Assembly: GCA_035529595.1 (NCBI GenBank)
Contig: DATKWK010000035.1
Coordinates: 177,067-241,066, forward strand
Reading direction: 5' to 3'
Source of the DNA: Candidatus Bathyarchaeia archaeon
GTDB taxonomy: Bacteria > Patescibacteriota > Microgenomatia > PFEM01 > JAFGMK01
Length of the DNA stretch: 64,000 bases
The translations under genes and the position numbers were made by a program. The notes beneath the pieces are model-generated. The model was not told the DNA's origin, did no database searches, and saw only the letters and a program-made list of their open reading frames with translations. Within the stretch, counting starts at the first letter, position 1, and each line of letters starts with the position of its first letter. Of the stretch, positions 9,403 to 51,615 are shown one piece after another.

Positions 9403-9411
9403 ATTTTGTAA

Positions 9412-10566
9412 TTAACCGACCCAATATCCCTGACTAAAAAGAAATTGGCAGATAAAAAGCAATATAAACAAGATAAACGAAAAAATCTTTCCAATAAGAG
9501 GATGCTCCTTATGAAATAAGGATAAACCAATAAAAGCCGGAAAAAGAACCAGCACATATCGGGGAAAGGAAGAAAGAGTTCCTGTCAGAGTCGGTATTAG
9601 GTAGGCAAAAAAAGCAAAAATTAAATATGAGTAATTGACCTTCTTAAAATAAGCAAGAATTAAAAGCGCTAAAAACAAAAGTGCCGATAATAATTCGAAC
9701 CAAACATTGAAATATACGAGACTATTTTTTTGGCAGCTGATTACCATCTTCAGGTAGCGCCAGAAAACCTGGTAAAGAAGGACCATTTTACCTCCCGATC
9801 TCTGGGCGCCAAAGTTCGACTGAACATGAACGAACATTAAAGAATCCTGATAATTATTACTTAAATATTTCATATAACTAACCAGCCCTAAAGGAGAAAT
9901 CAAAATCAGCCAAAGAGACAGGAAAAGATAACCGACTTTTAGTTTTTGTCCTCTTTTCTGCTGCTGCCACAGTTCAAAGAGCAAGGCCGGGATTAAAAAA
10001 ATACCGACCAACCTGGTAGCGGACGCTAGGGCAATAGCCAAGGGCACGAGCAGCCATAGTCTCTTTCTGGCCCAGTAAAAAGCCAGCAAAGTCAGAAAGA
10101 GAAAGATAGATTCCGTGTAAACGGCAGTAAAAAAAAATGAGGTCGGAAAAAGAACCAGAAAGAAAATGGTATGTATTGCTTCTTCCTTCGACCAATCCAG
10201 CAAGACTAAATTATAAAGCAGGTATAAAACACCCAATAATGATATTGATGAAATCAAAAAACCGGCCAGAAGATATTGGCCGGCCAGAATTTTCCCGATA
10301 AAACCGATCAGCTTCGGATAAAAGGGAAAGAAAGCCTGTTGATAAAGGCCGTAACCCCGCTGGGCGATCTGTAAATAATGAATTCCGTCAAAATTTGCCC
10401 AAGACTGTAACCACTTTGGCTGTTGGCCTTTTTCCGAGTAAAGATAACCATCCTTATTGGCTATCAACTTCGAGCTTACCTGGAAATTAATAAAAACCAG
10501 CAGTTGAAAGAACAACCAAGCAAAAAGAATCAACCGGTATTTACCTTTGCTGATACACTTTTTCAT
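9412..10566 (-). CDS. polytopic membrane protein, PIG-V/GT76-like mannosyltransferase family (GT-C)
   Basis: ORF 9412..10662. Probable start is ATG 10566 (MKKCISKGKYRLILFAWLFF...), avoiding a 120-nt overlap with the upstream gene. Motifs WANFDGIHYLQIAQRGY and AFFPFYP resemble Mannosyltransferase (PIG-V) family signatures. Paralog of 45165..46313. Confidence 0.45.
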   Translation of the reverse strand: MKKCISKGKYRLILFAWLFFQLLVFINFQVSSKLIANKDGYLYSEKGQQPKWLQSWANFDGIHYLQIAQRGYGLYQQAFFPFYPKLIGFIGKILAGQYLLAGFLISSISLLGVLYLLYNLVLLDWSKEEAIHTIFFLVLFPTSFFFTAVYTESIFLFLTLLAFYWARKRLWLLVPLAIALASATRLVGIFLIPALLFELWQQQKRGQKLKVGYLFLSLWLILISPLGLVSYMKYLSNNYQDSLMFVHVQSNFGAQRSGGKMVLLYQVFWRYLKMVISCQKNSLVYFNVWFELLSALLFLALLILAYFKKVNYSYLIFAFFAYLIPTLTGTLSSFPRYVLVLFPAFIGLSLFHKEHPLIGKIFSFILFILLFICQFLFSQGYWVG

Positions 10567-11593
10567 AGATTTCAATAGTCTTTCTGGCCGTCTTGATCCA
10601 GGAAAAGTTACTTGCCTGCCGAAAACCTTTCTCAACCAGTTTTTTTCTGAGTGCCAAATCATTTAAAACTAATTTTAATCCTCTGGCAAGACCGTCAGGT
10701 TTGGGATTAACTAAAACAGCCGCTTTTCCGCAGACTTCAGGCAAACTGGAGCGATTACTGGAAACCACTGGGCAGCCACACCTCATTGCTTCCAAAAGCG
10801 GCAGGCCAAAACCTTCATAAAAAGACGGCTGGCAATAAACTGAGGCTAAATTATAGATCGCCACCAAATCTTTGGTGGGAACAAAACCAAGGCGGATAAC
10901 TCCTTTATTATCTCCGTAAACTTTAATCAATAGCGCCAGCGGCTGATTCTCAGGATGGTCGGGGTTAAAATCGGACTGTACTGCCTGCTTTCCGATAATT
11001 ACTACCGGCATTTTAATTTCTAAACAAGCCTTAATCAGACCTAAAACATTTTTGTTATAATTAACATCGCCAACGTATAAGACAAACGATGGTGGTAAAC
11101 GGTATTTTTCTCTGATCGCAGCAAGTACTGCTTTATTACCCAGAGGTCGAAAATCTTCATCAGGAGCCAGGTAAACAATAAATATCTTATTGGCCGGTAT
11201 TTTCAGAAATCTTAAAATATCCCTTTTAGACGAGTACGAATCGGTTATTACCGCTTTGGTATTTTTTAAAGATAACTTTTGCAGGCCGAATTTGATCTTA
11301 CCTCTTATGCCCGGCGGATACTGGACTGGGAAAACTAAAGGAATCAGGTCGTGAATCGTAACTACAGTCTTGACACGCTTAACAACCGGTAAAGTCAGAA
11401 AAAAAAGATCAAAAAACGGATAATGGATCAAGTCAGCTTGACTAATCAACCGTCTATCTTTATCGGATATCAAAAAAAATCGATTTTGACAATCTACTTT
11501 TTGAAGGTTATCGACTAACTTTTGCGTATATTTTCCAATACCACGATAACGGTGACCGGACTTTAATGGTGAAATATCTACAGCAATATTCAT
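10541..11593 (-). CDS. glycosyltransferase family 4 (GT-B, RfaG-like)
   Basis: ORF 10541..11638; probable start ATG 11593 (MNIAVDISPL...), 3 nt after the upstream stop. C-terminal EGFGLPLLEAMRCGCPVVSSNRSSLPEV is the GT4 E-x7-E motif region. Confidence 0.8.
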   Translation of the reverse strand: MNIAVDISPLKSGHRYRGIGKYTQKLVDNLQKVDCQNRFFLISDKDRRLISQADLIHYPFFDLFFLTLPVVKRVKTVVTIHDLIPLVFPVQYPPGIRGKIKFGLQKLSLKNTKAVITDSYSSKRDILRFLKIPANKIFIVYLAPDEDFRPLGNKAVLAAIREKYRLPPSFVLYVGDVNYNKNVLGLIKACLEIKMPVVIIGKQAVQSDFNPDHPENQPLALLIKVYGDNKGVIRLGFVPTKDLVAIYNLASVYCQPSFYEGFGLPLLEAMRCGCPVVSSNRSSLPEVCGKAAVLVNPKPDGLARGLKLVLNDLALRKKLVEKGFRQASNFSWIKTARKTIEIYEKVYQQR

Positions 11594-13128
11594 ATCTTTT
11601 CTCCCAGCTTTTCGATTCTTGTTGCTCCGATCTCCCATTCTTCAACCGCGGCTGAAAAATTATTTCTCCATTCGATAAACCAGTTTTTTTGCGACTCATA
11701 AGGCTCGATGATTAAATAAACAAATTCGCTTTTCTTAACCGGCAGTAAAGCGTCCGCTTCCTTTTTACCGGCAACGTAAATGGGCTTACCGGATAAGTAT
11801 ACGTATTCCTCCGGTACGTAGCCGTATTTATTTTTGGCACGCCACCAGATAAGGTATTGGTAGGGATAATCATAAACGTAAGGGGCAAAAGTATAAACAT
11901 TGAATCCTTTGCCGGCAGCATTCTGATATATTCGATCAATAACCTGAATCCTATTTCTCAGATTGGCAGGATCGGAAGAGAGGGTTTTTTCAAGTGGAAA
12001 TGGCCAATATTGCCGGATACTAAATCCTAACCAGTAAAACAGGAGTATTATACTTAGTACTTTTGAAAAACGGCCTTTTTTATAAAGGACCGCCAAAGAT
12101 ACACCAATCAAGGTTACCATCATGGCACTAACGGCATTTAAATACCAAGGCCATATTTCGAAAGGCGCCATATTAAGACAAAATAGAACTACCGCTAAAA
12201 GAACCAGGCTGGTAAGAAACAGTGAAAATACTTCTTTATTTTTCGGCTTATTTTTAAGATATGAATTCAAAACAATCCAGGCTATCAGAAAAAGAAAAAT
12301 ATAAGCTAATAGCTTGCTTCTGCCTGCCGAATCCAAAAAAATATTGTACCAGATCGGAAAGCGACTCAGGAAACGCGCTTTCGGACTCATCTGCGAGATG
12401 CTCAAAGATCCAGTTTTTCCTTCTATTAGCGGTATGATCGATTTCGTCTGAATAAAATCATGACGTAAGTCGAAAATCAGCTGAGGGATAAAGGGAAGGA
12501 GAAAAAATGGCAAAAATGATCTATGTATCCAGATTGATTTTATTTTTCCATTAATTAAAAAAAGCAACAGGACAGCCGGAACCAAGGAAGCAGCTATCAC
12601 AAAATTAAAATGGAAGCCTGAAGCCAGCAAAAACAAAGATAAAGCCAGCCACAGTTTCCGGCCACAATTCATGTATCGGCTCAAGCATAAAATAATAACA
12701 GGAACGATATAAACCATTGGATTCGTATTCAGGGCAATAGTGGTATTGATAAAAAAAGGCCAAGAAAAACTATAAGTAAGAACGAAAACCGTGGCGATTT
12801 CTTTATCGTCTAAAATCTTCAAGAAGAAAAAAGGCAACAAAACCGAAAACAAGATTAATGGTCCTAAAGAGCTTAAAGGGTGCCCGCCTGTCAAAATATA
12901 GAAAGGCAAAATTAAGTAATACCAAAAAGGACCATAGAAAAGACCGTGCAGCGAAGTCGTTGGACCAATCAGTGGCGGTCTTTTATATATTACTGTCCTT
13001 CTGATATCAAGCAAATCGCGACCCTGATCATAAGTAATAGGGGCAGAATGCCGCCATATAAAAACTAAACGGAATATCAGGCTTATCAATACGAGCACTA
13101 ACAACCAAAAAGAGTATTTCCTGATCAT
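11590..13128 (-). CDS. GT-C-like polytopic membrane glycosyltransferase (ArnT/PMT-related, TYDQGRD loop motif family)
   Basis: 512 aa, more than 10 TM helices; first periplasmic loop TYDQGRDLLDIRR...GPTTSLHGLFYGPFWYY parallels the ArnT PDEARYAEISREM loop. Paralogs at 21548..23122 and 42921..44405. Confidence 0.5.
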   Translation of the reverse strand: MIRKYSFWLLVLVLISLIFRLVFIWRHSAPITYDQGRDLLDIRRTVIYKRPPLIGPTTSLHGLFYGPFWYYLILPFYILTGGHPLSSLGPLILFSVLLPFFFLKILDDKEIATVFVLTYSFSWPFFINTTIALNTNPMVYIVPVIILCLSRYMNCGRKLWLALSLFLLASGFHFNFVIAASLVPAVLLLFLINGKIKSIWIHRSFLPFFLLPFIPQLIFDLRHDFIQTKSIIPLIEGKTGSLSISQMSPKARFLSRFPIWYNIFLDSAGRSKLLAYIFLFLIAWIVLNSYLKNKPKNKEVFSLFLTSLVLLAVVLFCLNMAPFEIWPWYLNAVSAMMVTLIGVSLAVLYKKGRFSKVLSIILLFYWLGFSIRQYWPFPLEKTLSSDPANLRNRIQVIDRIYQNAAGKGFNVYTFAPYVYDYPYQYLIWWRAKNKYGYVPEEYVYLSGKPIYVAGKKEADALLPVKKSEFVYLIIEPYESQKNWFIEWRNNFSAAVEEWEIGATRIEKLGEKI

Positions 13129-13129
13129 A

Positions 13130-13939
13130 CTATAACCAATCTTGTTTTATATCCCTTACCCTGCCGGATCTCTTCATTTCCCAATACTTAACATAGGCGA
13201 GCAGGTAATGAAGCCCGGAAAAAAGCGAAAAAACAAAACCGGGAAAGCCGTCTCTGAAACCCTGATGCCGAACGAATAAAGAAAAAAAAGTGGAAATAGG
13301 TTTCAGAAACAAATATTGAAACGAATTAAATAAATTTATTTTCAATTTTCTCTCAGCCATAGATTGAGCCTCGAGCGATGAATAGCGGTTCTCACGGGTT
13401 AAGTATCGAGTAAAGGTCGGACTAGAAAGGTGAACAAGATCGTTTTTCAACCACCCTAATCGGCCGTCGACTTCTATTTGCTCGTGAACACTGACTTCAG
13501 GATGTTTACCTTTCCCTTTTTCAAAAAACCTGATTACCGGATCCGGGTATTGGCCGCCTTTCTTCAGAAAGCCCGTTAAGAAGAAGTTTTTTCTTTTAAT
13601 CCAAAAACCAACCGGGTCCCCTTTTTCCCGCTTCCGATGGGCAACTCTTCTAATTTCCTGTCCCAGTTCCGGACTTACCCGTTCATCGGCGTCCAAAACC
13701 AAAATCCAGTTTCCGGTACAAGCTTCGACTGCCCGGTTTTTATTTATATGAAACATCGGCCGGTTTTTGGTTTTAATTACGCGCGCCCCCAGCCCTTGGG
13801 CAATCTGCCTGGTTTGATCTTGTGAGGCACCGTCAACAACCACAATTTCATCGGCAAAAGACTTAACCGACCTAAGGCAATCAGCAATATTGGCCTCTTC
13901 ATTAAAAGTCGCTATCGCAACCGATATTTTGCCCATCAT
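13130..13939 (-). CDS. glycosyltransferase family 2 (three-copy paralog family A)
   Basis: 269 aa; ISVAIATFNEEANIADCLRSVKSFADEIVVVDGASQDQTRQIAQGLGARV...WILVLDADERV. Paralogs at 26509..27282 and 31243..32157 share the same order of motifs. Confidence 0.7.
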   Translation of the reverse strand: MMGKISVAIATFNEEANIADCLRSVKSFADEIVVVDGASQDQTRQIAQGLGARVIKTKNRPMFHINKNRAVEACTGNWILVLDADERVSPELGQEIRRVAHRKREKGDPVGFWIKRKNFFLTGFLKKGGQYPDPVIRFFEKGKGKHPEVSVHEQIEVDGRLGWLKNDLVHLSSPTFTRYLTRENRYSSLEAQSMAERKLKINLFNSFQYLFLKPISTFFSLFVRHQGFRDGFPGFVFSLFSGLHYLLAYVKYWEMKRSGRVRDIKQDWL

Positions 13940-13954
13940 CTTAATGATTATACT

Positions 13955-15646
13955 TCAAAGCTCGGCAATTTCAAAAGCCGGCCGATTGTTTCTAAAGTAA
14001 ATTCGTTTGACGATGTTGGCCGAATCGGGTATTTCTTCATCGGTACCGACAATTAAGACATTCTCTTGATCCTTAAGCTTCTCCCAATCGATTTCCTCAA
14101 AATGAAAATTGTCAAAGTCACGGACTGTCGAAAAACCAAACTTATCCCGCGGAGTTAAAACAGCCTCTTTCTGAAAAACCGCCGGCGGGTATTTCAGATA
14201 AAACAGAAACAAAATATAAGGCTGATCATATTTATCGGTAACCAGGATTTTCCGGTATTGATTATGTATTGGTTCTAAATAGCTTACCAATTCTTTCATC
14301 CCGTATTCCCAAACTTGGGGTGAATTAATCGGATAGTCTGCCAGATAGCTTTTCAGAAAATACCCGAGCTGCCAAAAATAAACTGAAATCACTACCAATA
14401 ATAGAATTAAAATTTTCCCTTTAGCCGCTCCGGGACCGGGATTACATATACGATCGGGTATCGAAGATTTTAAGGAAAGCAAAAATCGATATATTCCATA
14501 AGCGACAATTAACAGGAAAGGAACTACCATCGAATGAGAACGAAGTGCATGGGGCGATTGAAGCGTCAAAGACGCCGGCAATGGCGCTATCATCAGCCAA
14601 GCCGTTAAGAATCCAAAAGATGTCTTTCTCTCCCTTAAGATAAAAAAAGCGCCGAGAACAAAAAAAAGCAGATCCAAATAATAAAACTGGCCGATTCCCG
14701 GACAATTACTGCGGACTATCGGATCGCCGCTGATGAATAAGAAATCACCTCCAAAATGACTTGACCAATTTGCTAAAATTTTAATCAGATACGACAGCGG
14801 CCGGTTGTGAAGGATCTTGACCCAAAAAGCGTCCATATCCGGTCCATGTTCACCCCGAAGACGGTTCGTATTCCAAAATGGACCGATGTCTCCGGTTATT
14901 CCGACTCCGGAAAAACGGGCCAAGGCGCCTCCTTTCAAGAAACTTAGCAAGAGGGGAAAAGACAATAAGAATCCGATTACCAACCAGATTGCCAATTTGG
15001 ATTTTTGCAGAAAAAATATTTTTCTATTCAGCCAGATTAAAAGCAACAGCAATAAAGGGGCAAGAATCCTGGAACTGTGATAAACATAAGCGGAAACAAC
15101 AAATGCAACCAGGGAACAAACATAATCAGAGAAACGATTGCGACTAACTCCTTTCACGAATAACCAAGTACCAAGAATCAGAAAGGCAGTCGCTACATTT
15201 GTTTCCCAGGCGCCCCGGGAAAACTGAATATGCCACGGAGAAATTGCCAGCATCAAGGCAGCAATTTCCGGATAAGAAAATTGGATTCGGGAAATAAGAT
15301 TTCCCGGTACCGGAATCAGCTGCCGGGCCAAAAGAAAGATCAGATAAACGGACCAGACACCAAAAATCACCGATGGTAACCTGACAGCCGGTTCGCTTAA
15401 GCCCAAAAGTTTAACAAAAGGCAAGGCTAAATAAAAATAGCCGCCCGGTTTGTAATCGTTAAATGACCGAAAGTGCAGCGGCCAAAAATTTCCATGCTCA
15501 TCTCTCCCGGTCGTAATAAGGGAGTAATCATTATACCCAATTGCCGCCTCATCGGCATTAAAACCATGAGGAACTAATCCGATTTGATAGATCCTTAGAA
15601 AAGAAGCAAGAATAATGATTAATAAAATAGCCCAATTCTTTGTCAT
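13955..15646 (-). CDS. PMT_2/GT39-like phospholipid-carrier-dependent glycosyltransferase (GT-C)
   Basis: 563 aa; loop-1 motif FNADEAAIGYNDYSLITTGRDEHGNFWPLHF...GGYFYLALP matches the DE-containing catalytic loop of the Pmt/ArnT family; more than 10 TM helices plus C-terminal soluble domain. First of four tandem paralogs. Confidence 0.6.
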   Translation of the reverse strand: MTKNWAILLIIILASFLRIYQIGLVPHGFNADEAAIGYNDYSLITTGRDEHGNFWPLHFRSFNDYKPGGYFYLALPFVKLLGLSEPAVRLPSVIFGVWSVYLIFLLARQLIPVPGNLISRIQFSYPEIAALMLAISPWHIQFSRGAWETNVATAFLILGTWLFVKGVSRNRFSDYVCSLVAFVVSAYVYHSSRILAPLLLLLLIWLNRKIFFLQKSKLAIWLVIGFLLSFPLLLSFLKGGALARFSGVGITGDIGPFWNTNRLRGEHGPDMDAFWVKILHNRPLSYLIKILANWSSHFGGDFLFISGDPIVRSNCPGIGQFYYLDLLFFVLGAFFILRERKTSFGFLTAWLMIAPLPASLTLQSPHALRSHSMVVPFLLIVAYGIYRFLLSLKSSIPDRICNPGPGAAKGKILILLLVVISVYFWQLGYFLKSYLADYPINSPQVWEYGMKELVSYLEPIHNQYRKILVTDKYDQPYILFLFYLKYPPAVFQKEAVLTPRDKFGFSTVRDFDNFHFEEIDWEKLKDQENVLIVGTDEEIPDSANIVKRIYFRNNRPAFEIAEL

Positions 15647-15647
15647 T

Positions 15648-17189
15648 TTATAAGGTTTCGACTATTCGGAAAGCCAATTCTCCGTTTAAATAGTAAATAT
15701 CTTTAAGAATTCGTGCTTGCTGAAGCTCGATGTCTGTTTCCGGGATCTCGTAAGTTGCGGCAACATAAAGTGTTTTTTTCTGAAAACGGTCAACCGGCCA
15801 ATAAAGATTCCTAAATTCTAAATTATCGTTGTCTCTCGTATTTTCAGGCGGGTTGAAAGAACAAAGGTCGTCTGAAAATCTGTTGGTATAAAAGTAATAA
15901 TAAAACTGGGCCGAAGGGTACTTGTTTGTAAAAACTACCTGATTATAAGAATGCTTTCTGTTATTGACAAAACTGACCGCTTCCCGATAACCATATTGCC
16001 AGGCTTGCGAATTAGCCACAGGTGCATGGATAAAGTAACGATCCCAGAATAGAACAAAAAGAAAAAAATAATTCAATCCCAGGCCGATTGAAAGAAAACA
16101 CCTTGCCCAGATTCGGCTTTTTCTTATTAAAAGCCCCAGGGCTAATACTCCGAAAGAGCTGATAATTACCAACGGCAAGATCAATAAATAAGCTTTCTCC
16201 GAATCAATAGCTTGACTGGAAAAAGACGCCGATAACGGAGAGACCAGGATGAGAACCCAGAGAAAACTTTGGTTTTTTATTCGTTGGTTAATCAAGAAAT
16301 AAGTACCTATTGGTAATAAAAACAAATCTAAATAGTTTAATAGCCCCAAATCAGGCAAACCGAACCTTTTTTCTTGCCAATCCCCCTCAAAAAATAGAAA
16401 CCGGGGAGAAAAATGGTTCAAATATTTAAGAAAGAAGTTTCTAAATGACTTATGAAAATCAGTGTGAAAAACAACATTCTTGATAATAGGAAAAGAAGAA
16501 TTGGCCCAGATAATAGCCAACAATCCGATTGTTAGAATAACTAAAGTATATTTTCTGAGCGATGCTTTATTAAAGAGTAAAAATTCTTTACCATAAATAA
16601 ACCAGAAACTCAAGAATGTAAGAAAAATAATCAGTCTGACTGATGTACCAACATAAAAAGCAACTATAAAACAGGTTAACGCCAACCAAAAATAGCCTTT
16701 CTTTCCCTGAATGACCCAAAAAAGAAAGATTAAACCAAAGAAAAGAAAAACTAAGTACAGATTAGCGTCGCCGGCACTATGGGAAAAATCGTAATGCCAG
16801 AACGATAAGGTCAGCCACAGACTGGCGATTGTGGCCAGCAGCCTATTTTCCCTAAATTCCGAAAAAATGTTTTTAACCAGGATATAGATAAGAAAGACGC
16901 TCAATCCGCCCAAAAACGCGGCCGGTAATCGTATAGCAAACTCAGTTGCTCCCAAAAATAACATCGGTATAACGCTAAGGTAGCTATAAAGGGATGACTG
17001 ATTAATCTGCCGGAATCTAAAAAAGGCAGTCCAGCCCTGACTACTCTTAAGCAGACATAAGGCGCGATAGCCCAAAGCTACCTCGGATGAGGAAAATCCG
17101 ACAGGTATTTGGCCTAAACGATAAAGCCTCAGACCAAAGGCAACCAAACTAATACTGATAACAATTGAAAGATATTTTCTATTTGTCAT
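15648..17189 (-). CDS. PMT_2/GT39-like GT-C paralog with degenerate DE motif (SSSE)
   Basis: 513 aa; homologous N-terminal loop reads FSSSEVALGYRALCLLKSSQGW, so the catalytic Asp of the DE motif is replaced by Ser and the GRDE(H/W)GN stretch is absent. Confidence 0.5.
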   Translation of the reverse strand: MTNRKYLSIVISISLVAFGLRLYRLGQIPVGFSSSEVALGYRALCLLKSSQGWTAFFRFRQINQSSLYSYLSVIPMLFLGATEFAIRLPAAFLGGLSVFLIYILVKNIFSEFRENRLLATIASLWLTLSFWHYDFSHSAGDANLYLVFLFFGLIFLFWVIQGKKGYFWLALTCFIVAFYVGTSVRLIIFLTFLSFWFIYGKEFLLFNKASLRKYTLVILTIGLLAIIWANSSFPIIKNVVFHTDFHKSFRNFFLKYLNHFSPRFLFFEGDWQEKRFGLPDLGLLNYLDLFLLPIGTYFLINQRIKNQSFLWVLILVSPLSASFSSQAIDSEKAYLLILPLVIISSFGVLALGLLIRKSRIWARCFLSIGLGLNYFFLFVLFWDRYFIHAPVANSQAWQYGYREAVSFVNNRKHSYNQVVFTNKYPSAQFYYYFYTNRFSDDLCSFNPPENTRDNDNLEFRNLYWPVDRFQKKTLYVAATYEIPETDIELQQARILKDIYYLNGELAFRIVETL

Positions 17190-18027
17190 TTTGACGATAC
17201 GTCAAGTCATAAACTACAAAAGCTGTTTGACCGTTGCTAGATGGAACCAGATAATCGGGTTTAATTCCAGATAGAGACTCGCCAGCTGGCCGGTTATAAA
17301 CCAAACGGCAAAAGAGGTAGTTGAAATGACCAAGACAATTAAGCCTTTTTTCCTCGATTCGGGCAACGACGCCGGGATCGGTAAAAATACTGACCTTTAA
17401 GAATCGCTCGCTACTTCCCCTAAAACCGGAGAGAACCAGCGGTATCAGCAAAACTACAAAAATAAGAGTTGCCGGCCAGATTTTTTTTAATGGTTTATTT
17501 TTAAAAATCAGGGTCAAGACGAAAAAAAGCGCCGACAAACAAAAACTTTCTTTCAGAAAGAAAGTAAAACCTGCCAAAAAAAAGAAAAGTCCTAAATTAG
17601 CTTCTAGGGCCATCCGGCTGGTTTGGATATGCCAGGGATTAATAACATAAAGAAAAGAAGCTGCCATGATAAAAACATAATTTTTCTTTCTCCCTAAACC
17701 CATACTGGTAACAATATTGATAAAAAACAAAACACTCATAGCTCCAAAGGCAGCGGAAACAAAACGCGTCGCCAATTGGTTAAGGCCAAGAAAAGAAATC
17801 GGCAACACGGAAAAATAAATATAGAGCGGTAATTTATGTTCGCCAAAAGCCTTAAATGTTAAAGGAAGCTGATTGCCCCATTCATCCCGACCGGTCTTTA
17901 ATAAGCTGAAAGCATTATAGCCAATACTGGCTTCGTCAGAGATGAAGGTCGGGAAATTACCTAATTTAATTAAATGAAGCGTAAGAGATAAGGCAAAAAG
18001 GAAAATAGCCCAACCGCATTTTTTCAT
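17179..18027 (-). CDS. truncated PMT_2/GT39-like paralog (N-terminal ~280 aa only; possible gene remnant)
   Basis: 282 aa; retains FISDEASIGYNAFSLLKTGRDEWGNQLPLTF...PLYIYFSVLP and RFLKVSIFTDPGVVARIEEKR, homologous to 18073..19752. Lacks several internal TM helices and the entire C-terminal half. 11-nt overlap with the next gene. Confidence 0.4.
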   Translation of the reverse strand: MKKCGWAIFLFALSLTLHLIKLGNFPTFISDEASIGYNAFSLLKTGRDEWGNQLPLTFKAFGEHKLPLYIYFSVLPISFLGLNQLATRFVSAAFGAMSVLFFINIVTSMGLGRKKNYVFIMAASFLYVINPWHIQTSRMALEANLGLFFFLAGFTFFLKESFCLSALFFVLTLIFKNKPLKKIWPATLIFVVLLIPLVLSGFRGSSERFLKVSIFTDPGVVARIEEKRLNCLGHFNYLFCRLVYNRPAGESLSGIKPDYLVPSSNGQTAFVVYDLTYRQNDK

Positions 18028-18072
18028 TCCTGTTTCCTCACATGATAATATGCCGGCAGAATAATAATTTTC

Positions 18073-19752
18073 TTAAATGGTTTTAAAAATATAAAAAGCC
18101 ACTTCCCCGTCAGGATAGGGAATTTCCTTAACGATTTTGATACTTGAATAGCCTTCAAGACTGTAACCCATCGCCTGGGTATAACCCGGAGTAACCACAA
18201 AAAGTATGCCATCTTTTTTTTCTCCGGTTTTTAAGAATGAAAGATCCGGATTTGCGAAGAGATACTTGCCGAGTCCGACCGGGGAAATAGTAATTTCCTT
18301 CTGAATCGTCTGCGGTGAATAACGGTTATAAAAGAGAGCATAAACAATCGGCGGATCATAAGCCGGACTAAAATAAATCTGACGATACTCGTCCTCAACC
18401 TGATTTAAGTAATCAAAAGTTTGCTGATAACCATAATTCCACCAGCGCCACCAACTGCCTTGTTTATTGGGAAAATGCAAAAAATAGAAATGGAAAAAGG
18501 AAAAGGAGGAAAGCAATAAAGCCAAACTGAAAATTGAAACAAACAACTTTTTTAACCGGCCGGATTTAATCAAAGTAAAAATACCAACCAGACCGTAAGC
18601 TGCCAAAAATTCCCACCAAGGCAAAAACTGGTAAGTCCTAATTGCGTGTGCTCCCCCGTTTTGAGTCAGAGCTGCCGGAACCGGAGTTAAAAACAGTATT
18701 AAAAAAGGTAAAAGCAGTCTTTTATCTTGATTTCTTAAAAAGTTAATAACAATCGCACAGGCTCCGACTAAAATTAGAGGGAAGAAAAGCGGGTAAAGCA
18801 GTCCTTTTTCGCCCGGATTATGACGGAAATTCGGGTCTCCCCTGATAAACAAATAATCGGTGGAAAAACTTGTTAAATAGTTCTTGACAAAATCATCGAA
18901 ATAAAACAGAACTTTATTGTGGATTGCCCTTGGCCAAAAACCGGACCGGGAACATTCGCGCCGAGCCAACTCTACTCTTTCGGCGATGTTCGGGGAGGTA
19001 ATAATTGAGATATTCATGAATCGAGATCCTCCTTGTCCGAACAGAATATCAAATCCCATCGGCAAAGAAATAAGCAAGAGCGGCAGAAGAAAATACCACA
19101 TCTTTTTCTTTGCCAGCAGTTTTTTTCCTTGAAGCAGAAAAAGGAAAGACAAGAATAGGGGGATAAAAAGCTTGGCCGTGCTGTAGGCGTAAAGTGAAAG
19201 TGCAAACAAAATTCCGGAAATCATCAAAATAACCGGCCGATGATTATGTTGGCCTTTAAGGAAAAAAAACAAAGCAGTCAGAAATAAAAGGTTAAACAAG
19301 GTCACTTCCAGTGCGATTCGGGAAAAATGGAAATGCCAAGGTGATAAAACCAAAAATAAACTGGCCAAGAGGGCGATTTTAGTATTATTAGTTATTTCTT
19401 TTACCAAAAAAAAGGTCACGACGATTCCCGAAAGGCTGAAAATAAGGCCGGGTAAACGAACGGCAAAATTAGTCAAGCCAAAGACGGCGATTGAAGGAAC
19501 GGTTGCATAAATATAAAGGGGCATTCGCCAATCGCCGAAAGACTGAAAATGGACTGGAAAACGATTACCGAAATAATCTTTACCGGTCTTCAAAATCGAG
19601 TAAGCCTGATATCCGGTGTCCACTTCATCGCCGAAAAGGCTGGGGGGGATTTTGTTAAAATTAAAAGTACGCAAAAAAGTTGCCAGGGCCAATATCAGAA
19701 GCAACCAAAATTGCCAATAATGCCGTTTGATGTAAACAATGATTTTTTTCAC
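18073..19752 (-). CDS. PMT_2/GT39-like phospholipid-carrier-dependent glycosyltransferase (GT-C)
   Basis: 559 aa; FGDEVDTGYQAYSILKTGKDYFGNRFPVHFQSFGDWRMPLYIYATVP loop motif; multi-TM plus C-terminal domain. Confidence 0.6.
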   Translation of the reverse strand: MKKIIVYIKRHYWQFWLLLILALATFLRTFNFNKIPPSLFGDEVDTGYQAYSILKTGKDYFGNRFPVHFQSFGDWRMPLYIYATVPSIAVFGLTNFAVRLPGLIFSLSGIVVTFFLVKEITNNTKIALLASLFLVLSPWHFHFSRIALEVTLFNLLFLTALFFFLKGQHNHRPVILMISGILFALSLYAYSTAKLFIPLFLSFLFLLQGKKLLAKKKMWYFLLPLLLISLPMGFDILFGQGGSRFMNISIITSPNIAERVELARRECSRSGFWPRAIHNKVLFYFDDFVKNYLTSFSTDYLFIRGDPNFRHNPGEKGLLYPLFFPLILVGACAIVINFLRNQDKRLLLPFLILFLTPVPAALTQNGGAHAIRTYQFLPWWEFLAAYGLVGIFTLIKSGRLKKLFVSIFSLALLLSSFSFFHFYFLHFPNKQGSWWRWWNYGYQQTFDYLNQVEDEYRQIYFSPAYDPPIVYALFYNRYSPQTIQKEITISPVGLGKYLFANPDLSFLKTGEKKDGILFVVTPGYTQAMGYSLEGYSSIKIVKEIPYPDGEVAFYIFKTI

Positions 19753-19788: not shown

Positions 19789-20607
19789 TTATAATGCTTT
19801 TCGCAGTTTAACCATCTTTTGCCCGCCGGCGATAACCGTATTTATCAGATAGTGCCTAAAAAGACCGTGATAGATTTTGCTGCTTTGCACCAGATAGCTG
19901 TTAACTTTTCCGGGTGTTTTTTTTCCACTTGCACCGTGACAGTGCACAAATTGCGCCTGGGGAAAGTAGTAAATTCTGAAACCGGCTTTTCTTAACCGCC
20001 GGCAATAATCAAGATCCTCAAAATACAGAAAAAACCGCTTGTCGAAAAGACCGACCTTTTCGGTGACCTGCTTGGGGATAAGCATCACCGCACCGACAAC
20101 AGCCTCAACAATGACCGGTTTATCACCATCCGGTAAATATTTTTGGAAAGCGCCTGACTGACCTAGCCAAAACTCTCTGACTGCTCCGCTAATTGTGGGC
20201 AGGTGGAACACCGAAGACTGGGGCGTACCATCCGGATTAAGAAGTCTGCCGCCGACAATCCCTACGGATTCTGTTTTTTCCGTAAATTTAATTAGACTGA
20301 CAATAGCGCCTTTTCGGCAAATAACATCGGAATTGAGAAGCAGAAGATATTTACCTTCGGCTTTCTTAATTCCTTGGTTAACTGCCTTGGAAAAGCCATA
20401 GTTCTTGGCCAATCCAATAAACTGATAGGCCAAATTTTCTTTCTGCCATTGTCTTAAAAATTCAGCACTGCCATCGGTAGAACCGTTATCGACAACAACT
20501 ACTTCCCAGCTACCTTTTAATCCCCAACAACCATGCTCAAGGCTGCCGAGACATTTTTCAAGAATATTCTTGGTATTGAAACTGACAATAATAATTGATA
20601 CTGTCAT
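19789..20607 (-). CDS. glycosyltransferase family 2 (rhamnosyltransferase/WbbL-like)
   Basis: 272 aa; MTVSIIIVSFNTKNILEKCLGSL...VVVVDNGSTDGSAEFL...LLLLNSDV...YFEDLDYCRR (GT2 DxD and ED motifs). Confidence 0.7.
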   Translation of the reverse strand: MTVSIIIVSFNTKNILEKCLGSLEHGCWGLKGSWEVVVVDNGSTDGSAEFLRQWQKENLAYQFIGLAKNYGFSKAVNQGIKKAEGKYLLLLNSDVICRKGAIVSLIKFTEKTESVGIVGGRLLNPDGTPQSSVFHLPTISGAVREFWLGQSGAFQKYLPDGDKPVIVEAVVGAVMLIPKQVTEKVGLFDKRFFLYFEDLDYCRRLRKAGFRIYYFPQAQFVHCHGASGKKTPGKVNSYLVQSSKIYHGLFRHYLINTVIAGGQKMVKLRKAL

Positions 20608-21494
20608 TCCCCGGCAAATAAGGTAAATATATCTTCATCGCTTAATTTTGTCTCATTCTTCTCTTGGAGACGGCGTGAAAATACCCTAGCTATATTTAGC
20701 AAAGCGGCCAAGATTACTTTCAAATAACCGGGATTTTTCACTAATCTCTTCACAAGAAACTTTCGGTGTTCATTAATCAGTTTTTTAGAGGTCATATTTT
20801 TCCAGATAAAAAACAGTTCATTACGTTGCTTAATTATATCAATATAGCCTTTGGAAAACCGGCTGACAGTTGACTGATGCTGATGGTGGACAATCGATCT
20901 CGGCTCCCATAAAATCTGGTAACCTCTTTTCCAAGCCCGGTAACAAAGATCAATGTCTTCCCAGTAAAAAGGATAATAGAGAGGGTCAAAGCCGCCAAGT
21001 TCCTGCCAAATTCTTTTTCGAAAGGCGGCGCTTCCGCCTGAAGCCCAAAAAGACGAATGCGTCTTTTTACTTTTTGGCCCCGGCACATGTTTTAAGAAAC
21101 CGTTTTCAAATATGCCTTTCGCCCAACTGAACTGAGGTTCATTAAAAGAAACGGCGAAAACACTTGGGTCTGAAAAATCATTAACCAACGGCCTCAGGAA
21201 GCCCTTTGTGGGAATGACATCATTATTAAGAAGCACGACAATATCCCCCCGGGTTTTCTTAACGCCTTCATTACAGGCATAAGCAAACCCGTAATTCTGA
21301 TTAAATCTTACTATACGAAGTGGTGGATTTTTCAGAACCATTTCCTGAAGATAATCTAGGCTTCCGTCAGTCGATCCATTATCGACAACAATTATTTCCG
21401 TATCCTTTCCAACTGACGTCAGGACTTTTAAAAAGTTTTTTTCAAGAAGCTTCTTACCATCCCAATTAGGAATAATTATCGAAAACTTAAGCAT
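20604..21494 (-). CDS. glycosyltransferase family 2
   Basis: ORF 20604..21530; probable start ATG 21494 (MLKFSIIIPNWDGKKLLEK...). EIIVVDNGSTDGSLDYL...VLLNNDV...YWEDIDLCYR. ATGA overlap with the downstream GT2. Confidence 0.7.
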   Translation of the reverse strand: MLKFSIIIPNWDGKKLLEKNFLKVLTSVGKDTEIIVVDNGSTDGSLDYLQEMVLKNPPLRIVRFNQNYGFAYACNEGVKKTRGDIVVLLNNDVIPTKGFLRPLVNDFSDPSVFAVSFNEPQFSWAKGIFENGFLKHVPGPKSKKTHSSFWASGGSAAFRKRIWQELGGFDPLYYPFYWEDIDLCYRAWKRGYQILWEPRSIVHHQHQSTVSRFSKGYIDIIKQRNELFFIWKNMTSKKLINEHRKFLVKRLVKNPGYLKVILAALLNIARVFSRRLQEKNETKLSDEDIFTLFAGE

Positions 21495-21547
21495 TATATT
21501 TATAATAGCGCCTTCTTTCCAGGAAAACAATTTGTTAATATAATCGT

Positions 21548-23122
21548 ATGAATAAAAAAGTTATTCTCTTCTCCGTCTTTCTTGTTGCAATTTTACTCCG
21601 CTGTCTTTATTTCAAAGAAGCAATTACCTTTACTTATGACCAGGCACGCGATGCACTTCAAGCCATAGATATCTGGACAAATGATCCGGTTAAAATAATC
21701 GGGCCCCAAACCGACCTTAAAGGATTGTATCATGGCCCTTTGTATTGGTATTTGATTTCTCCTGTCTACTTTTTTACTAAAGAAAACGTCTGGATAGTTA
21801 AGTTTTTCCTTATACTCGCTAACACCGCTAATCTTTTTTTGATATACAGCCTCAGTTTCTCCCTTTTTAAAGACAAGAAAATCTCCTTCCTGGCAGCTTT
21901 TTTCTATGCAATATCCTTCGAAACAGTTCAATATGCCCGTTGGCTATCAAACCCTTCCCCGGCGATTATATCGACTACCATTTCTTTTTGGTCGCTTTGG
22001 AAATTGATGGAGAACAAAAAATGGGCTTTACCATTACTGCTCTTTTCCTGGGGCCTTTCCGTTCAGTTCGAGTTTTTCTTAATCTATCAAATCAGCATTT
22101 TTGTCTTTATCTGGTTACTGGCAAAAGGCACGAAACTGCCTAAATTAAATAACCGTTGGCTAATGGTTACTTTATTTTCGCTTATTGTACCTTTCATGTC
22201 TTTCCTAGTGGCCGAGATTAAATTTAAAGGCCAAGGATTACAGGCGCTGCTTCTTATCGGTAAAGGTCAGTCTTCGCTGGGAACCAATTTTAGTCGTTTA
22301 CTTTTGGGAACGGTCGATCGATTGGTATTGGTTTTTTTCCACAATCTCTGGGGAGTCAATATTTTTCTAGCAGGTTTAATGACATTAATTACACTTTACC
22401 TTGCTTGTCTCTTGATAACCCGACAAAAAAACTTAAAAAAACAGCTGATCTTACTGGTAATCTGGATAATTTCCCCAATGGCTCTAGATTTCTTTAAGGG
22501 AACTCAAAGCACTTTTGTCACTCTCGGCTCCGGTATCGGTAGTCTCATTTTATCGGCCTATTTAATAAGCTATTTTTTCGCCCGTTCTGGCCGGCGTTGG
22601 CTTTACTTCCTAATTATCGGTATTATAACCTTTGGCAACTTAAAACTAATTATCAGTCAAAATAGGTACGGAGAAACCTTATTTGCGGTCCAAGACAAAA
22701 TGAATTTAGGCGACCAGTTAAAGATAATTGATTGGATTTACGAAGAAAGCGATCAGCAACCTTTTCACCTCAATACAATCACCAATCCTCTTTTCATCAA
22801 TACAACCTGGGCATTTTTATTCAACTGGTACGGAAAAGGCCATTACGAATATATGCCGGTTTGGTGGGGCGAGACCCAAGTTGATGTTTTCGGCTCTGAG
22901 ATCAATTTCTCGCCGGAACAGAAAACTAAGCTGCATTTTTTAATCATCGAACCGGATCCGGGAATGTTCGGCGGTTACATTCAGGCTATCAGGCAATTGG
23001 AAGACAGCCGGTCACAAGTAGTCGCAGATAAACAGTTCGGCAATTTTTTAGTAGAAAAAAGAATAGTTACCAATCCAAGAATCTTTACTTCCCGCGACGT
23101 CTTCGATCTGCTGAGCAAGTAA
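21548..23122 (+). CDS. GT-C-like polytopic membrane glycosyltransferase (TYDQARD loop family paralog)
   Basis: 524 aa on plus strand; N-terminus FTYDQARDALQAIDIWTNDPVKIIGPQTDLKGLYHGPLYWYLISP aligns with 11590..13128. Divergent from the minus-strand GT2 at 21494; 38-nt convergent overlap with the YfhO-like gene. Confidence 0.5.
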   Translation: MNKKVILFSVFLVAILLRCLYFKEAITFTYDQARDALQAIDIWTNDPVKIIGPQTDLKGLYHGPLYWYLISPVYFFTKENVWIVKFFLILANTANLFLIYSLSFSLFKDKKISFLAAFFYAISFETVQYARWLSNPSPAIISTTISFWSLWKLMENKKWALPLLLFSWGLSVQFEFFLIYQISIFVFIWLLAKGTKLPKLNNRWLMVTLFSLIVPFMSFLVAEIKFKGQGLQALLLIGKGQSSLGTNFSRLLLGTVDRLVLVFFHNLWGVNIFLAGLMTLITLYLACLLITRQKNLKKQLILLVIWIISPMALDFFKGTQSTFVTLGSGIGSLILSAYLISYFFARSGRRWLYFLIIGIITFGNLKLIISQNRYGETLFAVQDKMNLGDQLKIIDWIYEESDQQPFHLNTITNPLFINTTWAFLFNWYGKGHYEYMPVWWGETQVDVFGSEINFSPEQKTKLHFLIIEPDPGMFGGYIQAIRQLEDSRSQVVADKQFGNFLVEKRIVTNPRIFTSRDVFDLLSK

Positions 23123-25547
23123 ACCCTATTCTTTGCCAGCACCAGGCAACAGTAAGAAGCAGCCAGACACCCAGACAACTTAAGATGGTACCTATTTGGA
23201 CCGATTCAGGCCGGTATAACAAGTCGACGCGATGCTTACCGGCAGGAACTATAATACCCCGAAAAGAGAAATTAGCTCTGTATGTTTCCGTTTCCTGGTT
23301 ATCGACAAAACTTCGCCACCCGGGATAAAAATTATCAGATACAAAAAGAATTCCGTCCCGATCAGTTTCAACTTCCAAAACAATCTCATTTTGCCAATAA
23401 GATTCTTGATTAATTAACACTATATCTTTTTTTCGGACCGGCAATCCGAAATCCCCTTCGATTTCTTTTTCTAAGATAACTTTCTCCAAAGGATCAAATT
23501 CTTCATCCCTCAACTGTTCTATAATCTCCCTTTCGTCTTTAATTACTTGATAATCGTGAACCAAAAAAACACGCGGAAGAGCCTGTTCATTCAGATAAAC
23601 TTTGGAACGACCGTAATCATAAACCGGTTCGAATCTATCTGCCGTTTCCCCCAGATACCAATCTTTATCCGCCAAAATATAGCGCACACCTAACAAATCA
23701 ACTAACGACGAAGAAAAATTATTAACCTTGACCCAACGACTGCCTACAGACAAGGAAGTAAAATCTGTTTCATTGACCTGATTTGCTAAAAGATTATATC
23801 GCCTGATCATCAGCGGTTCATAACCTTCAACAGAAGATAAATGGTAAGGAATAAACATCCCCTGCGGAATTAAACCGACAAAACGATCAATACCGATATT
23901 CTGTTTCAAATAATCGATTAGGTCGGTGTTTGGGAATAACCAATCTCTTTTACTGAAGCTATTATATTTCCAGCCGAACCGGAAAAGTTCAAAAATAAGA
24001 AGCAATATCAAAAACCCGGGCGCTATTTTTTTAATCCTCGGAAACCGATCCGTGATAAAAATAATTATCATGACAATAAAAAATGCGGCCGTCGGCAAAA
24101 TCATATTCCTTTGACTCACCTTTAAATGAGTAACCAGCTCTGTATTATTTATAACCTTAACCTCTTTAAAGACCCAAAACCACGATAATACCAGGCCAAT
24201 AAGCAGCCAGATAATGATTTTTCTCAATAAGATCAAATCCCGACTCTTGATAAATTCGTCAAATCCGAAAGCTGCCAGTACAGCCAGAAAGAAATCAGCC
24301 AAAAAAAAGGTGCGGCCTACTGAAGCAGCTGCCAATCCGGGAATCTTGAGAGCTTGTATAAGCAAACCGAAAGGCTTAAAAAGGACCAGCATAGAAAACA
24401 GTAAAAAAAGGCGGAAAAAGTTAACATGTCTTTTACTCAAGAAACCATATAGGGCAAAAACTAGTCCGCTGACACCGATAAAACCGGCAACCTCGTTATA
24501 GGGAAGACTTCCCCAGAAATTCTGAGTCGACGGATTGCCGTAAAAATCGGGAAAGAAAAAGAGAATTAAATGCCGTAATGCAATATAGCCCTGATCAAAA
24601 GATCTGGTTGTCACGTCTTCATTTCTGATAGAGTTACGCACTAACTCCCATCCCGGTACCAGTTGTATTCCTGATAAAAGGATGCCAAAAATAATAAAGG
24701 TTATAATTAAACCCATTGAATAAAAATTTCTTACTTTAAAAGTATTAGATAGGTTAAAAAAAAAGGCCACTAATAATAAGTAGATACTGACTTGAGGGTA
24801 ACCGGCGAGCAAAGAAAAGGCAACTGAGACTGCGCCTACTATGAACCAGCCTAAGTTTACTTTTCTGCTTAAACGATTCACTGCAAGAAGAATGAGAGGT
24901 AGCCAAAGACCGGCATGCCCGATAATTCCATACTCCAGCCAGACTAAATTGAAACCGGAATAAGCAAAAATAAGACTTCCAAAAACGGCAGCGGTTTTAG
25001 ATACATCCACACTTTTTAAAAAAAAATAAGAAAATAAAGATGCTAGAAGCGGCTGCAAAATAATATATATTGTCCAAGCATCAATATTCCGAAAAATAAA
25101 AAAAAGAAAATTGAACGGGTAAAAAACCGCGGACTGAAAATTAGCCAGTAGCGGTTGTCCCGCTAAGGCATGAGGAATCCAGAGCGGTAACTTACCAGCC
25201 TTTAAAAGCTCCATTCCGTAGATTCTCCACGGATAAATGATGGAAACTACATCGGAAAGAAGGCCATTCTTGAAAGGAACACCTGCCGGAAATCCGGGCC
25301 AAATATAATCCCGCCAAGGATAGTAAATGCCAACGATTAAATCAGCCGGTATCGGTACCAAATTATGCAATATCGTTTTAACAAAAAAAAGAGCTACCAA
25401 AAAAACAAGGAAAAAGACAAGAATAAAGTCTTTATGTCCGGCTAATTTTTTCAATAATTTTTTCATAACTTTTGCAGAATCTGTCCTTGGAGAACTTTTG
25501 GCTTTCGTATACGGCATTTTGAGATAATTTTTGCCATAAAATTTCAT
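23085..25547 (-). CDS. YfhO-family polytopic membrane protein (GT-C fold glycosyltransferase)
   Basis: 820 aa; N-terminal PADLIVGIYYPWRDY...GKLPLWIPHALAGQPLLANFQSAVFYPFNFLFF and C-terminal DNFYPGWRSFVDNQETE...VPAGKHRVDLLYRPESVQIGTILSCLGVWLL, matching the conserved YfhO ends (ypGW..vdG / ..G.H.v...Y.P). Confidence 0.6.
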   Translation of the reverse strand: MKFYGKNYLKMPYTKAKSSPRTDSAKVMKKLLKKLAGHKDFILVFFLVFLVALFFVKTILHNLVPIPADLIVGIYYPWRDYIWPGFPAGVPFKNGLLSDVVSIIYPWRIYGMELLKAGKLPLWIPHALAGQPLLANFQSAVFYPFNFLFFIFRNIDAWTIYIILQPLLASLFSYFFLKSVDVSKTAAVFGSLIFAYSGFNLVWLEYGIIGHAGLWLPLILLAVNRLSRKVNLGWFIVGAVSVAFSLLAGYPQVSIYLLLVAFFFNLSNTFKVRNFYSMGLIITFIIFGILLSGIQLVPGWELVRNSIRNEDVTTRSFDQGYIALRHLILFFFPDFYGNPSTQNFWGSLPYNEVAGFIGVSGLVFALYGFLSKRHVNFFRLFLLFSMLVLFKPFGLLIQALKIPGLAAASVGRTFFLADFFLAVLAAFGFDEFIKSRDLILLRKIIIWLLIGLVLSWFWVFKEVKVINNTELVTHLKVSQRNMILPTAAFFIVMIIIFITDRFPRIKKIAPGFLILLLIFELFRFGWKYNSFSKRDWLFPNTDLIDYLKQNIGIDRFVGLIPQGMFIPYHLSSVEGYEPLMIRRYNLLANQVNETDFTSLSVGSRWVKVNNFSSSLVDLLGVRYILADKDWYLGETADRFEPVYDYGRSKVYLNEQALPRVFLVHDYQVIKDEREIIEQLRDEEFDPLEKVILEKEIEGDFGLPVRKKDIVLINQESYWQNEIVLEVETDRDGILFVSDNFYPGWRSFVDNQETETYRANFSFRGIIVPAGKHRVDLLYRPESVQIGTILSCLGVWLLLTVAWCWQRIGFTCSADRRRRGK

Positions 25548-34207: not shown

Positions 34208-34238
34208 TTTGCATTCCGAAGAAAATTCAGGGTATAAT
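34208..34238 (+). promoter_or_regulatory. sigma70-like promoter (-35 TTTGCA, 19-nt spacer, -10 TATAAT) driving the plus-strand paralog, probably leaderless or short-leader
   Basis: TTTGCA at 34208-34213, TATAAT at 34233-34238, ATG at 34248. Located in the 57-nt divergent intergenic region 34152..34208. Confidence 0.4.
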
Positions 34239-34247
34239 TTGGCCATC

Positions 34248-50608: not shown

Positions 50609-50648
50609 CTTAACCCACTAAATTAAAGTTCGCAAGGTATCAATAGCC

Positions 50649-51545: not shown

Positions 51546-51615
51546 CTTATCTATTACCCAACTTGTAATAATCTAACCTTTGGATATTTTCCCAGCCTTT
51601 TGAGCGAATCCTAAG

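Follow-up and report, generated by a model that had tools for sequence, protein, structure and literature searches.

We analysed a 64,000-nucleotide stretch of contig DATKWK010000035.1 (hereafter the window, meaning that whole stretch), focusing on an array of four consecutive minus-strand open reading frames (ORFs) that encode membrane proteins related to GT-C glycosyltransferases. We name these genes c1, c2, c3 and c4 in ascending window coordinates (Table 1). All four were present in the ORF list with the lengths and motifs described in the original prediction, including the Asp-Glu (DE) pair retained in c1, c3 and c4 and, likewise, the GRDEHGN, GRDEWGN and GKDYFGN blocks. The packing of the genes is operon-like: a spacer of 45 nt separates c4 from c3, c3 and c2 overlap by 11 nt, and a single nucleotide lies between c2 and c1.

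The sequence of the array is authentic. Along 16,849 bases around it there were zero mismatches with a 394-kb JGI contig (sample 3300031566), and the same bases are also identical in a 65-kb Logan contig (SRR8554643), although the read sets behind these assemblies may overlap or be shared. The array proteins are encoded as well on a contig of 846,852 bp, with NCBI as one among several listed sources. A repeat search in the array detected only chance matches of 18–24 nt between the copies; with no repeats longer than 24 nt, there was therefore nothing able to collapse during assembly. Rfam and tRNA scans of the window yielded no matches, and promoter and terminator scans remained at chance level (33 vs 32.2 and 21 vs 17.8).

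A profile built from 95 family members gave 650 and 618 bits for the two intact copies, 346 bits for c2 and 203 bits for c3, so that the common descent of the four copies is beyond doubt. With the Pfam family PMT_2 (PF13231; cut-off 26.1 bits), c1 (34.7 bits) and c4 (43.6 bits) passed, c2 (16.7 bits) stayed below and c3 had no match, whereas NCBIfam provided only sub-threshold matches, to Agl23 and to the LA_3751/3752 family. The AlphaFold2 (AF2) model of c4, computed with 95 homologs, had a predicted local distance difference test score (pLDDT) of 95.9 and a predicted template modelling score (pTM) of 0.94. The chain forms ~12 membrane helices and then an alpha/beta C-terminal domain (residues 434–559), predicted to be extracytoplasmic, and the predicted fold is ArnT-like. 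The top Foldseek match in the PDB was ArnT of Cupriavidus metallidurans (5EZM/5F15; E-value 2e-7, TM-score 0.51–0.53), followed by AglB, STT3 and PglB and then by ALG12, Pmt4, DPY19 and the Emb/Aft arabinosyltransferases. With a Foldseek probability of 1.00 for ArnT, AglB, STT3, PglB, ALG12 and Pmt4, the model has a GT-C fold, and all the fold matches listed are GT-C enzymes that use lipid-phosphate-linked sugar donors. ArnT (5ezm) was also the sole solved structure reached by the sequence profile of the family (E-value 9e-4). A single-sequence search of c4 against PDB sequences retrieved only spurious cytochrome bc1 matches, which we discarded. Profile and fold matches thus agree with the initial assignment of the four genes to one ArnT/PMT-like GT-C family.

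The profile alignment to ArnT 5ezm puts the family residues K/R76 and E149 at chain residues 88 and 161, respectively. The offset is 3 in both cases, and K/R76 would thus be equivalent to ArnT K85 and E149 to ArnT D158. In ArnT, K85 contacts the lipid phosphate and D158 the sugar, and the first-loop active site comprises D55/E56 in this enzyme and D77/E78 in Pmt1, where every D77/E78 replacement abolishes function (PMC7801869). Two motifs of the first periplasmic loop are required for ArnT activity (PMC5377068). In the c4 model, the family pair Asp42-Glu43 is located directly after helix 1, where the first outer loop begins, and 34 residues separate D42 from K/R76, compared with 30 in ArnT (C. 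metallidurans numbering; D31 to K61 in Escherichia coli). The register of the DE motif relative to ArnT was set by hand from the profile alignment and the E. coli ArnT sequence, since hhalign of the family profile against the single E. coli ArnT covered only the PMT_2 core, at 9% probability, and left the DE motif unaligned. Loop position and register lead us to accept that Asp42 of the family probably corresponds to ArnT D55 and Pmt1 D77.

ArnT is the lipid A 4-amino-arabinose transferase, and Patescibacteria, the hosts of the family, are not expected to possess lipid A. The family shares with ArnT (GT83) the layout of the first loop, namely an Asp-Glu pair after the first transmembrane helix and an acid-x-Lys/Arg-Pro motif ~30 residues further on, before the second one, as well as the second acidic residue (E149 in the family, D158 in ArnT). 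However, sequence identity is just 13–14% and the C-terminal domain differs. Instead of RYA and YFEKP, the signature motifs of the ArnT loop 1 (PMC5377068), the family has DExxxGY and FGD[YW][KR]. The gene context is also different: ArnT has an arnBCADTEF context, whereas the array is surrounded by GT2, GT4, Wzx-like and other GT-C genes, and no Pfam family of the 4-amino-arabinose pathway was found among the scanned window ORFs (a part of all ORFs in the window). Loop motifs and gene context rule out the family as an ArnT ortholog. The PMT/POMT enzymes (GT39; Pmt1-Pmt2 6P25, Pmt4 9I5K) belong to the same clan and have in common with the family the PMT_2/PMT homology region and the DE pair in loop 1, but a Pfam scan found no MIR domain in any of the four copies. 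Most fold alignments with PMT structures cover ~260–290 columns with TM-scores of 0.31–0.34 (the exception is the Pmt4 C2 homodimer 9i5k_A, with 540 columns and a TM-score of 0.47), and for c4 they rank below those with ArnT and oligosaccharyltransferases. The absent MIR domain and the weaker fold match exclude strict PMT/GT39 membership. Of the label 'PMT_2/GT39-like' first given to the array, the PMT_2 part holds for c1 and c4, which pass the Pfam cut-off, whereas the GT39 part goes further than is warranted in view of the lack of MIR domains and of ArnT (GT83) as best match. The family itself is already recognised, as its relatives are named 'glycosyltransferase family 39 protein', 'ArnT family glycosyltransferase' or 'ArnT-like glycosyltransferase'; the first two are automatic NCBI labels. 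Our literature search on GT-C/ArnT arrays in Patescibacteria, or Candidate Phyla Radiation bacteria, retrieved nothing relevant.

In the databases, c4 has its best relatives (63% and 60% identity) on contigs that also bear the best relatives of c2. In fact, four other Patescibacteria/Microgenomates genomes possess a four-gene run in the same order with all members full-length (536–560 aa): a JGI metagenome contig (L003), a Paceibacterota metagenome-assembled genome (MAG; L004/L007) and two Microgenomates MAGs (L008 and L035, found in a related-loci search with a c4-ortholog alignment). In L003 and L004/L007, where the family genes encode 544–560 aa, they are embedded in a block with the order GT2, GT2, four family genes, GT2, 512-aa polytopic protein, GT4, ~382-aa protein and Wzx-like flippase. 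Positional orthologs are about 41–63% identical, compared with 25–37% for the paralogs within the array. A neighbour-joining tree of 20 proteins contained four groups, each with one gene per genome and 100% bootstrap, and the duplications are therefore older than the divergence of these five lineages. Judging from these sequence comparisons, the cassette already existed before at least five Patescibacteria/Microgenomates lineages separated and is an ancient conserved unit, of which only the decay would be recent and lineage-specific.

The array had been interpreted as genes duplicated locally in tandem that then decayed or acquired new functions, a pattern considered a hallmark of fast-evolving surface-glycan loci. 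The four genes are certainly adjacent, co-oriented and paralogous, and tandem runs of 4 to 8 full-length members are common in Woesebacteria/Amesbacteria loci, so that the family does expand in tandem over long times. An exhaustive search yielded 2,136 representative clusters of the family at E ≤ 1e-10. However, the low identity between paralogs and the lack of DNA-level repeats do not fit a recent duplication, and this idea is contradicted by the closer similarity between positional orthologs, by their fully supported orthogroups and by the synteny with the four other genomes, which extends to the flanking genes. We thus abandon this interpretation and consider a recent duplication very improbable. 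Runs of 6–8 full-length members were observed in L015, L018, L019, L024 and L034, which indicates expansion beyond the four-gene cassette elsewhere.

Two members of the cassette look unremarkable in evolutionary terms. The orthologs of c1 are 57–64% identical to it, with no rate difference in Tajima relative-rate tests. Those of c4 are 58–63% identical to it, again without acceleration: the window copy has fewer unique changes than either ortholog (21, against 44 in the L004 ortholog; p 0.004).

The case of c3 is different. Its orthologs have 536–549 aa, and it aligns well with them over its first ~262 residues, with a gap of 18 residues (occupied by GLTFYTYNGFRLFIPLFL in the ortholog) and another of 7, before the alignment jumps to the protein end. 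There, a tail of ~16 residues (SNGQTAFVVYDL) matches the extreme C-termini of the orthologs (SNGEIAFKIYRL and PNGEVAFKIYQF) with a summed score of 128, compared with 60 ± 8.6 for shuffled sequences; no score this high occurred among 1000 shuffles or 351 control windows. This tail match and the in-frame gaps indicate, therefore, that c3 originated by in-frame internal deletions that removed ~260 codons. The gene was correctly predicted to have been shortened by internal deletion, as ~260 residues, including the whole C-terminal domain, and an 18-residue transmembrane segment are absent. The ancestral 3' end of c3 now adjoins the start of c2 and, because c2 starts 11 nt before the c3 stop codon, the lost half is encoded in none of the frames.

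A collapsed repeat in the assembly or a sequencing frameshift in a full-length gene might have created such a short ORF. c3 is the only shortened member among the syntenic cassettes, and elsewhere, in L037, a family gene is split in two ORFs, possibly by a sequencing frameshift. Against such an artefact, the JGI and Logan assemblies agree at every base over 16.8 kb and the 846,852-bp contig encodes the same proteins, the missing 260 codons have no room and there are no collapsible repeats; in addition, the deletion is in-frame and the ancestral C-terminal tail has been retained. An artefact is thus extremely improbable, and c3, identical in three assemblies, is a genuine short gene. The split gene of L037, an Amesbacteria MAG, occupies positions 9842–11648 and encodes 298 and 347 aa that jointly cover the full profile; it is either a decayed copy or a frameshift.

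On the c4 model, the 18-residue gap of c3 runs from the end of helix 173–189 through a short outer turn, which carries the conserved Tyr190, into the start of helix 193–214. According to this model, the two helices of the hairpin become one, and everything downstream in c3 should then have an inverted topology. Helices 9–12, the invariant Arg372 and the C-terminal domain are lacking, and c3 covers the first half of the GT-C fold only. Because of these absences we favour the view that c3 is most likely a recent, non-functional remnant, inactive to judge by its sequence. A GAGGA ribosome-binding-like site is found upstream of it. The surviving part has 22 vs 15 and 16 vs 21 unique changes in comparison with orthologs, not significant in the Tajima test. 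With no rate excess, it follows that the damage is recent or that the remnant is still constrained.

In contrast with c3, c2 is full-length, and its degeneration concerns individual residues and loops. The motif SSSEVALGY carries Ser35 in place of the first-loop Asp. In two alignments of 319 and 149 sequences (sets with a slight overlap, in which the copies from the window are counted, the second being made of 147 hits plus c2 and c4), this column contains Asp in every other covering sequence except for one and two Glu, respectively; c2 has the only non-acidic residue, and the only Ser, in both sets. The Ser of c2 therefore does occupy the first-loop Asp column, as had been proposed, the correspondence with ArnT and Pmt1 being one of register. 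Overall, c2 keeps 36 of 54 conserved positions, its four orthologs 49–51. The replacements include (c4 numbering) Asp42 by Ser, Asp59 by Gly, Lys/Arg76 by Gln, Pro138 by Phe, Glu149 by Asp, Tyr190 by Gly and Arg372 by Lys; Gly62, Pro66 and Arg244 are deleted and the G[RK]DExG block has suffered a 5-residue deletion. c2 thus possesses neither the first-loop Asp nor the Lys/Arg equivalent to ArnT K85 that we took as diagnostic of a catalytically competent GT-C enzyme. The N-terminal catalytic half keeps 21 of its 36 conserved sites and the remainder 15 of 18, and the stretch of c2 scoring best against its relatives spans residues 240–511.

These changes were accompanied by a marked acceleration. 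The identity of c2 with its orthologs is 43–45%, that of the orthologs among themselves 67%, and Tajima tests counted 118 vs 30 and 113 vs 27 unique changes (p ~5e-13), i.e., a rate ~4 times that of the orthologs. We found no second genome with the c2 state among 5.8 billion clusters and 1.84 billion representatives, where c2 is a singleton; the state is therefore lineage-specific. Comparisons of dN/dS between orthologs were saturated (dS undefined or >2.5 in all of them), and between paralogs, at 25–37% identity, the ratio would carry no meaning. In its AF2 model, c2 still has the GT-C fold, with matches to ALG12, ArnT and PglB and an overall pLDDT of 91.1, whereas confidence falls to 54–79 in the first outer loop (50–70) and in the doubly deleted loop (220–250).

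Such a pattern invites the question of whether c2 is simply a pseudogene that decays neutrally and has yet to acquire a stop codon. It has lost 18 of the 54 conserved residues, among them 5 of the 13 invariant ones, evolves ~4 times faster than its orthologs and is a database singleton. However, in simulations of neutral drift with 20–35% extra amino-acid divergence, 8–13 stop codons were expected, and at each level none of 400 runs remained stop-free. Moreover, all the lineage-specific indels of c2 (five or more) are in-frame, the C-terminal half has its conserved sites largely in place and, apart from the two remodelled loops, the AF2 model has high confidence. Neutral decay is thus quite unlikely. 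To judge by these sequence features, c2 is most likely a maintained protein, either catalytically impaired or dead, or strongly re-specialised. The earlier suggestion of a non-catalytic or re-specialised paralog is consistent with the loss of motifs in a frame kept open, loss of activity being a prediction from these motifs.

Several points weigh against this picture of a maintained c2 and a dead c3. c2 still has Glu43, Tyr48, Tyr80/82, Arg99 and Trp139 (c4 numbering), and residual or altered catalysis may persist. The equivalence between D42 and ArnT D55 is one of loop position and register rather than of residue-level superposition, the drift simulation rests on a simple mutation model and, with nearest relatives ≤63% identical and dS saturated, neither the c2 nor the c3 event is dated. 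As for c3, all the first-loop motifs are preserved, the ribosome-binding-like site is present, the deletions are exclusively in-frame and there is no acceleration, so that it could be a functional short protein instead of a dead remnant. Taken to its end, this line of thought would make c2 an enzyme with altered chemistry, operating, for example, with Glu36 alone or with a new donor or acceptor, and c3 a functional short membrane protein with a donor-binding or regulatory role. The retention by c2 of Glu43, several aromatic residues and Arg99 in an ORF under selection, together with the intact first-loop motifs of c3, would agree with it. But c2 has lost the equivalents of both the Asp and K85 as well as Asp59, and any replacement at D77/E78 abolishes Pmt1 function (PMC7801869), whereas in c3 the 18-aa deletion, by fusing the helical hairpin (c4 173–189 and 193–214), should invert topology, and helices 9–12 are absent. 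We consider this alternative unlikely.

All in all, we find it probable that an ancient GT-C cassette has, in this lineage, seen c2 repurposed or impaired and c3 decay. If they work like ArnT, PMT and PglB, the enzymes would each transfer a sugar, on the outer side of the membrane, from a polyprenyl-phosphate-linked donor to an acceptor at the cell surface, either a polymer or a protein. This type of donor is suggested by the fold together with the conservation of the residues that bind phosphate. Catalysis would rely on the first-loop Asp-Glu pair and on the second acid, E149, with K/R76 holding the lipid phosphate. Here, c1 and c4 would each be such a transferase, as c3 and c2 would be in other genomes, and the four paralogs may serve four different linkages or acceptors. 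In the presumed order of events, c2 would have changed first, losing the Asp, Asp59, the Lys/Arg and parts of two active-site outer loops, and probably also its original activity, while selection would have held its frame open and its C-terminal half conserved for another role, for example lipid or glycan binding or partnership with a neighbour paralog. c3 would have changed later, when in-frame deletions fused two transmembrane helices and removed helices 9–12 and the C-terminal domain.

Comparable arrangements help to imagine such a role for c2. PMTs act as homo- or heterodimers of paralogs, a precedent for paralogs working together. The mycobacterial embC-embA-embB genes (GT53) are likewise tandem, divergent GT-C paralogs in one operon; the Emb proteins build a glycan of the cell envelope from polyprenyl-phosphate sugar donors, EmbA and EmbB form a heterodimer, and the EmbA-EmbB structure 7BVF is among the c4 fold matches. 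However, Emb proteins belong to a different GT-C family, are far larger and all three are catalytically competent. A precedent for a dead but maintained c2 is PIGU, a lipid-substrate-binding subunit of the glycosylphosphatidylinositol (GPI) transamidase with a GT-C fold and without glycosyltransferase activity. PIGU structures (7WLD_U, 8IMX_U) appear among the fold matches, but the match is weak (E-value 0.03–0.09), the protein is eukaryotic and very distant, and any membership of c2 in a complex would be hypothetical. We can therefore propose only tentatively, as a rather doubtful possibility, that c2 might be a bacterial 'pseudo-glycosyltransferase', dead but maintained as a lipid- or glycan-binding partner of the neighbour paralogs in the manner of PIGU.

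The array is part of one long, unusually dense glycan locus that extends from position 1 to ~48 kb of the window (Table 1). Besides ~15 GT2 genes, two GT4 genes and two Wzx-like flippases, it contains at least 13 ORFs for polytopic, GT-C-like proteins, some assigned to the PMT_2, YfhO or PTPS_related types and some without family assignment. The two GT2 genes directly upstream of the array hold the same position in L004/L005 and L003, and the downstream block (8113–13939) has the same gene order in L003 and L004. Further away, a GT2 fused to a GtrA/DPMS transmembrane domain could be a polyprenyl-phosphate-sugar synthase supplying the lipid-linked donor, a candidate link to the cassette. Two polytopic proteins of the locus, of 512 and 524 aa, have YDQ[GA]RD instead of DE in the first loop and lack a Pfam match that passes the cut-off, one reaching 23 bits with PMT_2 and the other having no match at all; they probably represent a separate, unnamed GT-C-like family. 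From a value of ~0.40 in the glycan locus, G+C content rises to 0.47–0.53 at ~50000–64000, a region that also encodes a TPM-domain protein and a CAP-domain protein.

Table 1 Features of the four-gene array and of the rest of the window.
Feature	Position	Strand	Remarks
c1	13955-15646	minus	563 aa, intact family member
c1 NADEAAIGY	15533-15559	minus	DE motif
c1 GRDEHGN	15488-15508	minus	
c1 FNDYK	15449-15463	minus	
c2	15648-17189	minus	513 aa, full-length but degenerate
c2 SSSEVALGY	17067-17093	minus	Ser35 in place of Asp
c2 remodelled first loop	16998-17048	minus	
c2 SFWHYDFSHSAGDAN	16761-16805	minus	
c2 two loop deletions	within 16467-16523	minus	16 + 18 aa
c2 R-to-K change	16188-16208	minus	
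c3	17179-18027	minus	282 aa, internally deleted
c3 ISDEASIGY	17917-17943	minus	DE motif, retained
c3 GRDEWGN	17872-17892	minus	retained
c3 FGEHK	17833-17847	minus	retained
c3 18-aa deletion junction	within 17509-17529	minus	
c3 7-aa deletion junction	within 17266-17289	minus	
c3 large deletion junction and kept C-terminal tail	17203-17256	minus	~260 aa deleted
c4	18073-19752	minus	559 aa, GTG start, intact family member
c4 FGDEVDTGY	19609-19635	minus	DE motif
c4 GKDYFGN	19564-19584	minus	
c4 FGDWR	19525-19539	minus	
Two GT2 genes	19789-21530	minus	272 and 308 aa, Pfam Glycos_transf_2, directly upstream of array
GT2	13130-13939	minus	conserved downstream block
512-aa GT-C-like membrane protein	11590-13128	minus	conserved downstream block; YDQ[GA]RD
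GT4	10541-11638	minus	conserved downstream block
416-aa polytopic protein	9412-10662	minus	conserved downstream block, no Pfam match
Wzx-like flippase	8113-9402	minus	conserved downstream block
Radical-SAM/B12 protein	3371-4870		
524-aa polytopic protein	21548-23122	plus	YDQ[GA]RD
YfhO-type gene	23085-25547		
YfhO-type gene	28221-30566		
Large polytopic ORF	32190-34151		no Pfam match
Large polytopic ORF	34209-36284		no Pfam match
PTPS_related gene	37772-39472		
Weak PMT match	39469-40596		
PMT_2-type gene	40583-42184		
PMT_2-type gene	42921-44405		
GT2 fused to GtrA/DPMS transmembrane domain	47029-48150	minus	Glycos_transf_2 69.8 bits, GtrA_DPMS_TM 57.7 bits
RtcB	52936-54351		
DUF11 surface protein	57077-59953		958 aa
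GH18	61196-62314		

The NCBI source name of the c2 and c3 proteins (VMW41_05305/05310) is 'MAG TPA ... [Candidatus Bathyarchaeia archaeon]'. This archaeal label looks wrong because the close homologs and the syntenic loci come from Paceibacterota, Microgenomates and Woesebacteria MAGs. The labels 'uncultured Gammaproteobacteria bacterium' and 'uncultured Pseudomonadales bacterium' of several MAG TPA_asm co-assemblies (loci L009, L011, L012, L015, L018-L021, L023, L025, L027, L028, L032, L034 and L038) are similarly doubtful, as their arrays are like those of Woesebacteria/Amesbacteria MAGs.

What this array records is gene decay of a tidy but quite ordinary sort, within a surface-glycan locus, rather than a new kind of system. 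In practical terms, c3 should be flagged in annotations as a remnant and c2 as probably non-catalytic, which helps to choose targets for studies of envelope glycosylation in these uncultured bacteria. The array also offers a natural experiment in which, within one genome, one paralog has been cut down and another lacks catalytic residues yet is under selection. If c2 were indeed a pseudo-glycosyltransferase, the four cassette proteins would form a hetero-oligomeric machine. In a number of Patescibacteria/Microgenomates, the four-gene GT-C cassette belongs to the cell-surface glycan locus as a conserved unit and is not a hot spot of recent duplication.

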